From the UHGV virus genome UHGV-0370399: a stretch of DNA of 64,000 bases; one strand, 5' to 3'. The translations under genes were made by a program, and so were the position numbers. How positions within the stretch are numbered: the first letter of the stretch is position 1; each line of letters begins with the position of its first letter. This DNA comes from a virus. The notes below the pieces were generated by a model. The model did not search any database. It was not told where the DNA came from and worked only from the letters and a program-made list of their open reading frames with translations. Shown piece by piece: positions 7,596-26,164 of this stretch.

Positions 7596-15611
<8,016 letters not shown>

Positions 15612-21621: not shown

Positions 21622-22137
21622 CTATTTAACCTCAAAAACTGGCTCAAGAACCAATATAAAGTCTACACAGTCATCTTCTTCATCCAGAATACCATCAAAG
21701 TTCTTAGGAACGAAGTCGAAGAGGCTCATCACAAAGCAGTCAGAAGTGACCTTGATAGTTCCTCCCATGTTCTCTACAGTTAACACTGTACGACTTTCTT
21801 TTACCTCCCTCAGAAGATTACCCACAAAGTCATCTAAGAAGTACTTCATCAGTGACTTAAAACCTTTAGGATAATCTGTACCAGAGTATGTTTCAATCTG
21901 AGGCACAAGCTTAACATTTATACTAGTCTTTGTTAAGAACGTGTTAGAGAACATACTATCAGGTAACTTACAAACACTCTTTCCAGTACCTTCATGTTCA
22001 ATCTCAACAAAACCAGCTTCGTCGCCACATGTAACTATTTTAAAAGATGCTTCATTCTCATACTGTGAAGCCATAAACTTTTTAAGCATCTCTTTAAGGA
22101 AATCTGCATGAGCATCTTGTAAGTAGATATCAATCAT
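21622..22137 (-). CDS. hypothetical protein
   Basis: 171 aa ATG-initiated ORF in the leftward operon. Confidence 0.4.
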   Translation of the reverse strand: MIDIYLQDAHADFLKEMLKKFMASQYENEASFKIVTCGDEAGFVEIEHEGTGKSVCKLPDSMFSNTFLTKTSINVKLVPQIETYSGTDYPKGFKSLMKYFLDDFVGNLLREVKESRTVLTVENMGGTIKVTSDCFVMSLFDFVPKNFDGILDEEDDCVDFILVLEPVFEVK

Positions 22138-22150
22138 AGTTAATCACCTA

Positions 22151-22510
22151 TTATGGGAACAAACACTTAATGTCATCGTTTTTGAAAACGAAACTTGTGT
22201 AGTTATGACCATCAACATCCAACCAAACAGCCTGAACATCTACACCATCAAGATTCTGGTAAAGCTCTTTGATGAAGTGGTCTTTCACAATCTGGCTACT
22301 AGTGGTTTCCAGCTTGATGTTTGAGATTGCTGAACCTACAGCCATATAGCCCATGACACGTTTCTTCTCAGTATGCTTAATCTTACCATCTTTGTAAGCC
22401 ATAATGAGATTGGAAAGAATCTTTACACCATAATACTTTTCAAGGTGAGTAGGTACACCATAAAAGCCTAATGCGAAGTTTTCAGAGTGGATAATGTTTT
22501 CACGTTTCAT
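22151..22510 (-). CDS. hypothetical protein
   Basis: 119 aa ATG-initiated ORF in the leftward operon. Confidence 0.4.
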   Translation of the reverse strand: MKRENIIHSENFALGFYGVPTHLEKYYGVKILSNLIMAYKDGKIKHTEKKRVMGYMAVGSAISNIKLETTSSQIVKDHFIKELYQNLDGVDVQAVWLDVDGHNYTSFVFKNDDIKCLFP

Positions 22511-22511
22511 A

Positions 22512-22811
22512 TTAGTCTGCCAACCTTAAATTGAAATTAACACCAAATTTTTCACATACTTCCAACATATACTCAAGGGAAACATTACCAGTGAGGTGGA
22601 TTATGTTGGATACACGAGCCTGAGAGATACCACAAATTTTAGCAACTTGCTCTTGAGAAAGACCTCTGGATTTAATCTCTCTCTTAAAACGATGTGCAAC
22701 GAAGTCTCTCATTTCGTCTACATCCATTGGACAAATATAACTCTCCATTTCAGCCTCTCTATCAGCCTCCCAATCATCTTGTGGGGCATAAGGGTCAAAA
22801 ACCTCATTCAT
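22512..22811 (-). CDS. helix-turn-helix (XRE/Cro-type) DNA-binding protein
   Basis: GLSQEQVAKICGISQARVSNI is a classic HTH; ORF-track start is TTG, moved to ATG at 22811 which overlaps the upstream stop (ATGAATGA). Confidence 0.55.
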   Translation of the reverse strand: MNEVFDPYAPQDDWEADREAEMESYICPMDVDEMRDFVAHRFKREIKSRGLSQEQVAKICGISQARVSNIIHLTGNVSLEYMLEVCEKFGVNFNLRLAD

Positions 22812-23016
22812 CTTTCTTCTTCCGTTTGCGTGAAGTGTCAATCAATGAATCTATGTTTGTAGCCCTAACCTTTTCACGTTCATCATTAAGATAATCATCA
22901 AGAGCCTTTTCAATCTGTGAATCATCTTGACAGATAACTGTAAAGACTGTAAATCCGTCTGTATCGTCAATTATCTTACCATAACCGCTTCTGGGATGTA
23001 ACTTTTTAAGAGCCAT
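22804..23016 (-). CDS. small acidic protein translationally coupled to the HTH gene
   Basis: 70 aa, acidic core, basic tail; stop lies inside the HTH start region. Confidence 0.4.
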   Translation of the reverse strand: MALKKLHPRSGYGKIIDDTDGFTVFTVICQDDSQIEKALDDYLNDEREKVRATNIDSLIDTSRKRKKKDE

Positions 23017-23017
23017 A

Positions 23018-23401
23018 TCAAATACCTGTGCAGCTTCTGTTTTCTAAGAAATACTCCACACCATACATAGCTTTTTGCATCAAATCTTCTTTAAACTGGA
23101 TACGGTGGTTGAGCATCGCCTGTACATCAATATCGTCATGGTGTTTCTCTTTAATGTTTGCAGATTGCAGGAAATACTCTGCAAGAACACGATACTGGTA
23201 GTCAGTCACCTTATCAGTCATCTCTGTCAAAGACTCTTCAGAGATGGGTTTCAGTAGCTCACCATTAGCTAGAGCAACACCTTTTACAATCTGGCAAGTA
23301 TCTTCTGGAACACCTGACAAGTCCACATTTGGGAGTTCTGTTGCATTGACTGGTAAATTCATTGCCATAACCATTGCAGCAGCTAATAAAATCTTTTTCA
23401 T
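23018..23401 (-). CDS. secreted or periplasmic protein with signal peptide
   Basis: MKKILLAAAMVMAMNLPVNA signal-like N-terminus; SD gagg; first gene after the large noncoding region. Confidence 0.45.
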   Translation of the reverse strand: MKKILLAAAMVMAMNLPVNATELPNVDLSGVPEDTCQIVKGVALANGELLKPISEESLTEMTDKVTDYQYRVLAEYFLQSANIKEKHHDDIDVQAMLNHRIQFKEDLMQKAMYGVEYFLENRSCTGI

Positions 23402-23518
23402 AATGACCTCAAAGTTATATTAAATTTTGTATTACATTGAGTATAAAAATAAGCTATAACACCTGACTTGTCAACAGATTTTATAGCTTATTTGGCAGAT
23501 TTTTTATAAGGCTACTGC

Positions 23519-23734
23519 CATCCTTCCATACCAAACCTCACCTGACCTCGCCTAACCCTACCTTACCCCACCATACAGCACCTTATTAAAACACCCTGTT
23601 TAAAGACCTTTTAAAAAGGTAAGTCTCATTTTAATGTAGCTGAGACTAACTACCCATACCGAACCTCACCGCACCATACTACACCTGACACCACCTTACA
23701 CCACCGCACCATACCTGACCGAGCTACACATCAC
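23519..23734. repeat. two G-free CA-rich repeat blocks flanking a hairpin
   Basis: Blocks about 23519-23583 and 23651-23734 share ccataccRaacctcacc, caccatac and acctgac motifs; inverted repeat GTCTCA/TGAGAC at 23623-23646 between them. Confidence 0.7.
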
Positions 23735-24009
23735 TTAAAAACCCTTTTCAAAGACTCTTAAGTGATGCTGGTGAGTACCCGTTGGTTTATGCTGCTCAGC
23801 ATACTCACCAAATTTTCTATGTCAACAACTTTCTAATAAAGTTTTATGAAGATTTTGCTTAACAACCCGCCTCACATGCCTGTGCTCTTTCTTAATAAAG
23901 AGTGACCTCTTCTTGATAGAGCGCCTATTCTTGTAAGTATTACTAGGATACTTATCATGAACCGGACAACAGCTACCCGGATTGGTAAACTTGATAATCT
24001 CTCTTTTCA

Positions 24010-25110
24010 CTATTCATAATCCCTAATAACTAACCCGACAGGGAACTGTAAAGAACCCTTACGAGTCATCTTCTGAAACTGAACCGTTAAAGGCTTCCCG
24101 ATAAACTCTTCAGGATGTTCAGCAAGATACTGTTTCTTCTCGTGTGTAGTCTTCCATGAGACATCTACAAAGACGTTAGGAAGCGTCTCTACAACGAACT
24201 TACCATGACCACGTTTATCGGTCTTGACACCAGTAACTTTAAACTCTTCAGTGTGCATCTTCTTGTGCTTAATCAAGAAGTATGAACGGTGACTACACTC
24301 GTAGAAAGATTCTTCAGAGATTGAACGGTACATTGCACCTTCAAACTTAGCTTCAACCCACTTATCATGGGCTTCATCAAACTCTTCCCAAGAATTTACA
24401 CGGATAGTCTGTACAGGAACAACTCTACAGGTATCCCCAAGCTCAACAATTGGTGAATTATCAATAACTTCACGACGCTCAGGCCAAGTTTTTGAATTGT
24501 CGCAGATATCATACCAGTAGAATTTAAGAAGGTGACGGTCTGGATTGTCAGCATTCTTAATCATAGATACAATATCTTCTAAGTCCCAACCATGAGCATA
24601 AATCTCTCCATCAAAGTCTTCCACTTGCGGATGTAATTTAAGCAACAAAAGCAAATCTGGGATTAGTTCTGTTGGAACGTTGTAAACAGTATTCTCACGA
24701 GAATAGGCTGTGAAACTAACTGAATCAGCATCTCTTGAAATCCTACAACGTACACCATCAAGTTTTGGTTGAGCATCAGCAGGGAACTTCAGATACTTTG
24801 CATGGCTAACCTTTGCAGCATCATGAGCAAGCTGTACACCTACCTTCTCAGTATTCTGTGCAGATTCTTTTGTATAAGCATAACCTTTACGGTCAACTTG
24901 CTTTTTATACTTAGCAGCAACTTCAAAGAGAGCTTGCTGTTCAGCGTTACGCTCATTCTTTTTACCGATGTTCTTAGGCTCTGCTGTATACTCTTCAAAC
25001 ATCATCTTGCCATTCTCTTTACCGTAGGTTGTAATAACTTTGTCACCTACAGCAACACATGACCAGACGTTAAAAGAGCCGTCTTTATTTTGTTTGTACA
25101 GAATTGTCAT
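24010..25110 (-). CDS. ATP-dependent DNA ligase
   Basis: Adenylation motif KLDGVRC (KxDG) and size about 366 aa typical of phage ATP ligases. Confidence 0.85.
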   Translation of the reverse strand: MTILYKQNKDGSFNVWSCVAVGDKVITTYGKENGKMMFEEYTAEPKNIGKKNERNAEQQALFEVAAKYKKQVDRKGYAYTKESAQNTEKVGVQLAHDAAKVSHAKYLKFPADAQPKLDGVRCRISRDADSVSFTAYSRENTVYNVPTELIPDLLLLLKLHPQVEDFDGEIYAHGWDLEDIVSMIKNADNPDRHLLKFYWYDICDNSKTWPERREVIDNSPIVELGDTCRVVPVQTIRVNSWEEFDEAHDKWVEAKFEGAMYRSISEESFYECSHRSYFLIKHKKMHTEEFKVTGVKTDKRGHGKFVVETLPNVFVDVSWKTTHEKKQYLAEHPEEFIGKPLTVQFQKMTRKGSLQFPVGLVIRDYE

Positions 25111-25313
25111 TTTCTCTTACCACCAATCTCTACGTCGATAACTTGAACATCGCCAGCAACATCAAACTTATGTATGATGCTTTCCACAGTATAAGTCCAA
25201 CCATCAATGCGAACCATCTCACCTTCTCGTGGAACTATTGGATTACGTTGAGCTACAGTTGTAGTGGAGTGAACAACATCATAACGATAGATATAGTTTA
25301 CTAGGACTTCCAT
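25107..25313 (-). CDS. hypothetical protein
   Basis: ORF-track start 25412 is TTG; the ATG at 25313 has SD gagtgagg and avoids overlap with the lipoprotein gene; start is uncertain. Confidence 0.3.
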   Translation of the reverse strand: MEVLVNYIYRYDVVHSTTTVAQRNPIVPREGEMVRIDGWTYTVESIIHKFDVAGDVQVIDVEIGGKRK

Positions 25314-25323
25314 CGTGAAAACC

Positions 25324-25560
25324 TCACTCAATAACCGTAGTATGTGATTGTCCATTTTTGCCATAGCTGTAAGATGTTGTTGTTTGAGAGTTTGGACATC
25401 TGACAACAACAATATCTCTGCTTATAGCATCACCATGTAACTTGTATACTCTGCAATCTTGCATCTCTGGTGGGAGGCTATAAGAAGCATTTTTATCTTC
25501 ATAAGAAGGGTTGCAGCCAGATAGAAAAATAACACCAAGCGCAATTACCACTTTCCACAT
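25324..25560 (-). CDS. small lipoprotein
   Basis: MWKVVIALGVIFLSGC has a signal peptide with lipobox LSGC; SD aggag; ORF-track GTG start replaced by the ATG at 25560. Confidence 0.45.
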   Translation of the reverse strand: MWKVVIALGVIFLSGCNPSYEDKNASYSLPPEMQDCRVYKLHGDAISRDIVVVRCPNSQTTTSYSYGKNGQSHTTVIE

Positions 25561-25573
25561 AACACTACTCCTA

Positions 25574-25729
25574 TTACTGTTCACGATGTTCTACTTCTCT
25601 GTACGTTCGTCGATAGTATATAATAAGCTGTGCTAACTCGTTGCTTTTAACATCTGAACGTAGCAGTTGCCAATCAAAACCTTTACCGACTCTTCCATAT
25701 AAACTAAACAGTTTTACTTTGCGTTTCAT
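25574..25729 (-). CDS. hypothetical small basic protein
   Basis: ORF-track start is TTG; first in-frame ATG is at 25729. Confidence 0.25.
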   Translation of the reverse strand: MKRKVKLFSLYGRVGKGFDWQLLRSDVKSNELAQLIIYYRRTYREVEHREQ

Positions 25730-25745
25730 TTTGGTATACCAATAC

Positions 25746-25958
25746 TCAGAAGTCAATATTAATACGTTCGCCCTTAAGGACTCCAGTACGGTCTCTTGCA
25801 ATCTTGCCGTCAACAATAAGGATATGTGCAGCCCTTAAAGAGTCACTATTAAAAGCTTTTACGAACTTACTAGGCATCACTACAATGGGCATCTCCTGAA
25901 TCAACTCTGGAGTATAGCAATTGTCGTGAAGTTGCTGAATAACGTCTGCAAGTGTCAT
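25746..25958 (-). CDS. hypothetical protein
   Basis: ORF-track start is TTG; ATG at 25958 has SD ggaga. Confidence 0.3.
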   Translation of the reverse strand: MTLADVIQQLHDNCYTPELIQEMPIVVMPSKFVKAFNSDSLRAAHILIVDGKIARDRTGVLKGERINIDF

Positions 25959-26164
25959 TTTTGATGTCTCCAATACTCAATGTCAATAAGTTCTTGTGCA
26001 ATGCTTTTAAGGTTACCTTTCAAGAAAACCTTCTCAGAACCTGAAAGAGATGAATTGTCAATTAACCTGTTCATTCTCTCAAACAACTTCTGCTTACGAT
26101 TTTTGATAGTCTCCTTTGAAGCACCTTTCATCATTGCTGCATGGGTTCTTCCACGATGGCTCAT
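25955..26164 (-). CDS. hypothetical small basic protein
   Basis: ATG with SD aggaggg; 69 aa, K/R-rich. Confidence 0.35.
   Translation of the reverse strand: MSHRGRTHAAMMKGASKETIKNRKQKLFERMNRLIDNSSLSGSEKVFLKGNLKSIAQELIDIEYWRHQK

Follow-up and report, generated by a model that had tools for sequence, protein, structure and literature searches.

VIPR was described only in 2026, in two bioRxiv preprints (10.64898/2026.04.26.720920, 10.64898/2026.04.26.720927), as an RNA-guided DNA-recognition system serving phage-against-phage interference. Its components are Vipr, a minimal RAMP protein; Vap, an accessory protein; and the vrRNAs, in which 9–16 YNNGG repeats are followed by a conserved, invariable 3' tail of about 40 nt that folds as a pseudoknot in the SUSP1 clade. 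Each repeat is held by one Vipr protomer, with the GGY flipped out and the NN pairs presented; the NN pairs read double-stranded DNA, every third base being skipped, and transcription is thereby repressed. Only for SUSP1 was an RNA of this kind, about 100 nt in length, shown to co-purify with Vipr and to repress its target. An E. coli satellite with tape-measure and baseplate homology to the phage is targeted by 18 of the 20 SUSP1-clade guides that have identifiable natural targets, and the system has been proposed to predate CRISPR (10.64898/2026.04.26.720920, 10.64898/2026.04.26.720927). Satellites with vrRNAs of their own were reported in the first of the two preprints.

The DNA analysed here (64,000 nt; the whole stretch is called the window) belongs to a Felix O1-like phage (Felixounavirus). 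Its positions 23402–24009, a region of 608 nt, very probably hold two vrRNA genes of the SUSP1/Felixounavirus clade of type II VIPR, as judged from their repeat code, tails and target matches. The kind of element is already known; new is that in about half of the Felixounavirus genomes vipr is missing while vrRNA modules are retained, intact and on target. Such genes are recognisable by sequence alone, from the 5-nt phase, the pseudoknot tail and targets read with one base skipped (skip 1).

Setting of the locus and its repeat arrays

The 608-nt region matched 231 phage records, nearly all from Escherichia and Salmonella myophages of the Felix O1 type (Felixounavirus). It sits within the leftward block of replication genes, with an ATP-dependent DNA ligase gene on one flank (24010–25110, minus strand; Pfam DNA_ligase_A_M) and the gene of a 127-aa protein with a signal peptide on the other (23018–23401, minus). 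The original prediction had counted 600 bp here as noncoding, which was too much: the frame with a GTG start at 23822–24010 (minus, 62 codons) is, by homology and codon pattern, a real gene (phrog_5428, E=5e-29), and so the noncoding stretch comes to only about 420 nt (23402–23821). The GTG overlaps the stop codon of the ligase gene; the product is very basic and rich in Cys and His, with a CCPVH...H..H pattern; and an alignment of five distinct homologues varies in 1, 1 and 11 columns at codon positions 1, 2 and 3. This gene lies outside the RNA element. It was seen in some Felixounaviruses only; in others, the stretch from the ligase gene to the vrRNA promoter is of unrelated sequence.

Two blocks poor in G on the plus strand had been noticed, and their positions and composition were borne out (block A, 23519–23585, 3 G in 67 nt; block B, 23651–23734, 7 G in 84 nt). 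Absent from that description was their strict 5-nt periodicity, (CCNNR)n on the plus strand and (YNNGG)n on the minus strand; CC starts 11 of 12 consecutive in-phase pentamers, as compared with a maximum of 6 in 100 shuffles. The vrRNA-B array (23654–23733, minus) has 16 in-phase YNNGG units, of which the core of 12 (23664–23723) reads CTCGG TCAGG TATGG TGCGG TGGTG TAAGG in its first six units and TGGTG TCAGG TGTAG TATGG TGCGG TGAGG in its last six. Four units of array B are without GG (TGGTG twice, TGTAG twice); such units are also found in vipr-positive phages, and the vrRNA-B guide itself occurs in three vipr-positive phages (L005, L010, L013), there as the first upstream guide. The vrRNA-A array (23526–23585, minus) has 12 YNNGG units, TAAGG TGCTG TATGG TGGGG TAAGG TAGGG (units 1–6) and TTAGG CGAGG TCAGG TGAGG TTTGG TATGG (units 7–12). 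Stop codons interrupt the arrays in every frame, and no further array of the YNNGG kind was found elsewhere in the 64-kb window.

The unit logo was drawn from 59 unique arrays of relatives: Y stands at position 1 in 99%, G at position 4 in 85% and G at position 5 in 99%, the two N positions being free; array length has its mode at 12 units and ranges from 8 to 19. Across 20 distinct sequences the arrays keep their phase but are hypervariable in the number of units and at both N positions, between near-identical flanks. Both window arrays thereby show the make-up of a vrRNA, that is, 9–16 tandem YNNGG units with GGY conserved and NN hypervariable.

Promoter, leader hairpins and pseudoknot tails

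A promoter scan placed a sigma-70-type promoter, P_vr (23798–23825, minus; TTGACA-16 nt-TATGCT), upstream of the first vrRNA module; it is conserved at every related locus, whatever sequence stands upstream, and is presumably used as a promoter. The -10 box (23798–23803, minus) reads TATGCT in the window and TATACT in 22 other distinct related sequences; the change may weaken the promoter, and the altered box could be a first sign of decay. The three inverted repeats noted earlier, GTCTCA/TGAGAC, CATCACTTAA/TTAAGTGATG and TGGTGAGTA/TACTCACCA, are all present. The third of these is the outer part of the nested palindrome, whose inner 6-bp part, ATGCTG/CAGCAT, is specific to the window because of the A-to-G change in the -10 box. 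The outer part, a 9-bp inverted repeat TGGTGAGTA...TACTCACCA (23769–23810), surrounds both the -10 box and the probable start site, and could serve as an operator or form a 5' leader hairpin. A candidate binder of this repeat is an HTH_3 (Cro/C1-type) regulator, whose gene (22512–22841, minus) lies two genes downstream of the vrRNA locus.

A leader hairpin precedes each array; two leader types occur across loci, with different stems and similar loops. Type 2 (23729–23767, minus; CATCACTTAA - 19-nt loop with the conserved motif GAGTCTTnnAAnAGGGT - TTAAGTGATG) stands directly 5' of array B and has arms of 10 bp that are 100% complementary; type 1 (23580–23620, minus; ACCTTTTTAAAA - loop GGTCTTTAAACAGGGTG - TTTTAATAAGGT) stands 5' of array A, overlaps its first unit and has 12-nt arms that are 92% complementary. 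The leader-loop motif AGAGTCTTCTnnnGAGGGTT (window 23739–23757 and 23592–23608) was also seen at an array-free position just upstream of the vipr start codon (L017:1485–1560), and might act in the locus as a promoter or as a signal for processing.

The segment of 32–33 nt 3' of each array is always an H-type pseudoknot with an A-rich third loop. In the window, the vrRNA-B tail (23622–23653, minus) reads GTAG TT AGTCTCA G CTAC ATTAAAA TGAGACT, with S1 paired at 4/4 and S2 at 7/7 positions, and the GTCTCA/TGAGAC repeat is part of it; the vrRNA-A tail (23493–23525, minus) reads AAGG A TGGCAG TAG CCTT ATAAAAAAT CTGCCA and shows compensatory changes against the paralogous tail GTGG A TGGTAG TAG CCAC GTTAAAAAT CTACCA. 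The pseudoknot tail of a vrRNA is thus present in both, with S1 at 4/4 and S2 at 6–7/7 pairs. Four tail types, GTAG/CTAC with AGTCTCA/TGAGACT, GTAG/CTAC with TAATCGG/TCGATTA, GTGG/CCAC with TGGTAG/CTACCA and AAGG/CCTT with TGGCAG/CTGCCA, covary and differ by compensatory changes. Since wobbles in the stem cells appear on the minus strand as G.T (9) and never as A.C (0), the functional molecule should be the minus-strand RNA. Among the four candidates of the original prediction, the structured noncoding RNA alone was right in kind (guide RNAs with a pseudoknot tail), but its strand is minus instead of plus. A cmscan of 22000–26000 against Rfam 15, with E up to 5, returned three chance-level matches only, far below the gathering scores, and no bacterial or phage RNA family, preQ1-I pseudoknot riboswitches included, was among them.

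Downstream of the arrays, about 120 nt from the last array to the next start codon (23402–23525, minus) are near-invariant among 20 distinct sequences. This stretch contains a terminator-like 19-bp hairpin with a T-run (23446–23493, minus), and within this hairpin lies the -35 box of a promoter, TTGACA-17 nt-TATTTT; terminator and promoter overlap, and the promoter would serve the downstream gene of the 127-aa secreted protein.

Partner protein, related loci and satellite targets

IMG/VR contigs were scanned with (GGYNN)8GG, which gave at least 120 matching stretches on contigs of 30–72% GC. Among the 120 matches listed, 79 loci have a protein of about 200 aa and of one family within 2.5 kb of the array, always on the G-rich strand of the array and usually just upstream. 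The family profile (Felixounavirus member phrog_4652) matches PDB 36pp, "SUSP1 Vipr protein", at E=1.3e-76; no Pfam match was found for the Felixounavirus member, and the AlphaFold model of Vipr has a pLDDT of 94.8. The description obtained from sequence only (logo, length, pseudoknot tail, strand and protein linkage) is, point by point, that of the vrRNA of the preprints. In two unrelated IMG/VR contigs, L047 and L091 (minus strand), blocks of 9–14 GGYNN units were seen in direct succession with only a 2-nt 'CA' phase shift between them (L047 at about 11320–11570, reverse-complement coordinates); these are probably the staggered-array type of the preprint.

The same locus was compared in 23 related IMG/VR loci and two GenBank loci, where the number of arrays is 0–5 per locus. 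An ordinary gene at this position in relatives, with the repeats in its reading frame, had been named as refuting the prediction; many relatives do have genes here, vipr and vap, between the blocks, but the repeats never fall in a reading frame. In 15 of 26 related loci, vipr (phrog_4652) and the gene of a 146-aa protein (vap, phrog_5926) lie between two array clusters. The promoter and first leader are kept in 231 GenBank phage records (all at 80% coverage or more), and vipr was found in 118 GenBank Ounavirinae records. By organism name, promoter and leader against vipr count 75 versus 17 records for Salmonella and 115 versus 77 for Escherichia; vipr seems to have been lost far more often among Salmonella phages, and these may not encounter the E. 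coli satellite. In the vipr-positive phages, vap is followed by a GC-rich hairpin that has a UUCG tetraloop and a T-run (GGAGCCTCTTCGGAGGCTCCTTTTT) and runs into the leader of the next vrRNA, as seen at L017 about 2615–2650 and at L023:2760–2790.

The satellite was located through the baseplate gene that it has in common with the window phage. A search of 5426 complete E. coli genomes gave a chromosomal copy of this gene in 474 of them, at 70–94% identity; the copies lie in an island of about 11 kb that also encodes serine recombinases, an HNH endonuclease and a tape-measure protein. Among the nine variants searched for guide targets (L151–L159), integration was seen at no fewer than three sites (yciI-tonB, inside a DUF72 gene near yecD, and ymdF-wrbA); the satellite is often broken by IS elements, and some variants carry an N6-adenine methyltransferase. 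No Vipr and no arrays were found within the nine variants.

As a positive control, guides of sister phages match the first satellite at 83–92% of NN positions, and only under skip 1; under skip 0, 2 and 3 they remain at or below about 75%. For the window, vrRNA-A is complementary to the gene of a 128-aa hypothetical protein of the satellite and vrRNA-B to its tape-measure gene. Under skip 1, and in L156, the satellite of E. coli O121 201805972, vrRNA-A matches 22/24 positions at L156:6505–6540, within the 128-aa gene (which has a weak, sub-threshold HTH match), and vrRNA-B matches 27/32 at L156:9591–9638, with 24/24 over the central 12 units; in both targets the skipped base is codon position 3. 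Control skip rules reached at most 18/24 for vrRNA-A and 20/32 for vrRNA-B, and 200 permutations of unit order at most 19/24 and 24/32, respectively. Both guides thus have a natural target in the sense of an NN match under the 1-nt skip rule. Neither guide has a self-target in its own phage, and Felixounavirus guides set against a vipr-less Felixounavirus genome did no better under skip 1 than under the control rules.

Orphan guides and comparison with described systems

Neither vipr nor vap gave a match in the 64-kb window (tblastn, family HMM), and neither is present anywhere in the nearest complete genome, OZ035796.1 (84,421 bp; collinear with the window and mostly 95–97% identical to it), which has arrays at this locus only. 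The adjacent vipr and the vap that mark type II VIPR are thus missing from both sequences, so the two guides are orphans; as the defining vipr gene was tested for and is absent, the locus is not a complete VIPR system. The proposed course of events begins with transcription of the minus strand, which would start at the conserved promoter (23825–23798); each module would yield an RNA of roughly 100 nt, made of about 12 GGY-NN repeats followed by the pseudoknot tail. Following the 2026 preprints, Vipr (RAMP) protomers, one per repeat, would flip out GGY and present the NN pairs, which would read double-stranded DNA skipping each third base, and binding would repress transcription. The orphan guides would act only if Vipr were given in trans; otherwise they would be a recent, still intact remnant.

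Of the explanations for the orphan state, the one that fares best, towards which we lean without calling it probable, is that the arrays are non-functional relics: flanking vrRNA modules recombined with each other, the vipr-vap cassette was deleted, and both remaining guides are as yet undecayed. It agrees with the absence of vipr and vap from the window and the nearest genome, with the mutated -10 box of the window and with weak arrays in some vipr-less relatives (GG in 6/10 units in L003 and in 7/10 in L018). The modules stand in the order promoter, type-2 leader, array B, tail a, type-1 leader, array A, tail d, which fits a leader-to-leader deletion and is what we would expect from recombination between type-1 leaders flanking a vipr-vap cassette, by which the first module upstream would come to adjoin the last one downstream. 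The survey of relatives fits a relic less well: promoter and leader are kept in 231 GenBank records as against only 118 Ounavirinae records with vipr, and 5 of 12 orphan guides still match a satellite at 80% or more, although only nine satellite variants were searched. Conservation is also equal in modules anchored on their tails, an anchoring by which decayed arrays are kept in the comparison: GG is conserved at 0.80 in vipr-less modules (n=15) and at 0.81 in vipr-positive ones (n=48; p=0.72), and Y at 0.99 in both (n=15 and n=48). The lack of detectable decay across many vipr-less genomes is the sole result that misfits a simple relic.

Alternatively, and this we hold to be possible but rather unlikely, the orphan modules are not debris but maintained guides that work in trans: guide-only phages would use the Vipr of a co-infecting vipr-positive relative, onto which the guides, as presumably the vrRNAs of satellites, would be loaded to silence the satellite still, or would compete for it. 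The orphan modules are conserved and on target as well as the vipr-positive ones. Carriers of guides only are moreover suggested by E. coli itself, since a vrRNA-like segment of about 90 nt was found in 152 E. coli genomes without vipr (at least one copy lying inside the satellite), no vipr match was found in E. coli genomes, and satellites have vrRNAs of their own. Against this, a lytic phage encounters a foreign Vipr during co-infection only, and there is no sign of Felixounavirus guides targeting Felixounavirus genomes, skip 1 doing no better than the control rules there. If guides do work in trans, they would be a public good in phage-satellite conflicts that can be shared or cheated upon, or an RNA decoy against VIPR. 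Between these two explanations, a recent but intact remnant is somewhat more likely than maintained use in trans.

That the C-rich, G-poor blocks are Rho-utilisation sites of the plus strand, stopping antisense transcription, is very improbable. Composition alone fits, with 46–48% C and 4–8% G over 67–84 nt of the plus strand and hairpins following, but a rut site needs neither a strict 5-nt phase nor an invariant purine before CC; the wobble pairs, G.T on the minus strand only, favour that strand; the arrays accompany Vipr in unrelated phages of 30–72% GC; and the NN positions spell satellite genes under skip 1. Still less credible is a replication origin or packaging site composed of iterons and palindromes, which the largest intergenic gap of the replication-gene block, with its repeats and inverted repeats, had suggested: origin-type iterons are absent, hypervariable NN and covarying RNA stems being no iteron property; the GC-skew switches at about 20 and 30 kb track gene orientation and not this site; Felixounavirus genomes end in 581-bp direct terminal repeats, which lie at another locus (the repeat of Pr103Blw has no arrays, and the window does not contain its sequence); and in Kolesnikvirus relatives the ligase gene has no element of this kind beside it. 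The terminal repeat of Pr103Blw (L026:1–581) was seen to be packed with short CTTGTTAA(G/A)-like repeats.

Further candidates were rejected. Two-tetrad G-quadruplexes or an i-motif leave the invariant pyrimidine after GG and the exact 5-nt phase unexplained; a Shine-Dalgarno-like sponge does not agree with A or G at position 3 in only 49% of units, nor a CsrA sponge with an array motif that is GGY, not GGA. Pairing with tRNA 3' RCCA ends, mimicry of the RNase P GGU motif, an R-loop or switch-region-like origin, a primase-site cluster and Chi-like sites were unsupported, and "TTAAGAG" as a phage-wide promoter motif showed no enrichment.

A census centred on the protein overlooks many loci, 231 Felix O1-like GenBank genomes having the vrRNA promoter and leader and only 118 having vipr. 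Felix O1-like phages serve in typing and biocontrol of Salmonella and E. coli, and whether a strain carries a working anti-satellite system or guides only could affect its yield on satellite-bearing hosts.

The closest described system is the type II VIPR of SUSP1, which shares with the window the YNNGG code, about 12 units and the 3' pseudoknot tail; the position downstream of the DNA ligase gene in a phage of the same subfamily; and an E. coli satellite target with a shared baseplate gene, read under skip 1 in such a way that codon wobble bases are the ones skipped. Unlike SUSP1, which has vipr, vap1 and vrRNAs (PDB 36pp), the window phage is without vipr and vap and has two guide genes only. 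The preprints took the Vipr protein as the query for finding loci, and a phage locus without vipr, such as this one, is therefore outside their set; the words "orphan", "standalone" and "Felix" are absent from the VIPR preprint text. The vrRNA genes of E. coli satellites resemble the window in having guides without vipr in the same element; they differ in residing in a parasite, which meets the Vipr of its helper at every induction, whereas here the guide-only carrier is a lytic phage.

More distant likenesses are found outside VIPR. The TRAP sites of Bacillus trp leaders are (G/U)AG triplets with 2–3-nt spacers, repeated 9–12 times and bound by one subunit per repeat; TRAP is a closed ring that sequesters the RNA for attenuation, and the spacers carry no information. 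They resemble the vrRNA in the conserved triplet and the free 2-nt spacer, without homology, and this analogy led to the search for a partner protein; a binding site for a TRAP-like ring protein was itself rejected, the partner being a helical RAMP filament. In class 1 CRISPR, with crRNA on Cas7, RAMP protomers likewise polymerise along a guide RNA, bases are kept unpaired at regular intervals, every 6th nt in Cascade, and a conserved, structured handle caps the variable guide. Unlike class 1 CRISPR, VIPR has no spacer-repeat array, acquisition genes or PAM; in its guides, conserved and variable parts alternate with a period of 5 nt, and the target is read with gaps.
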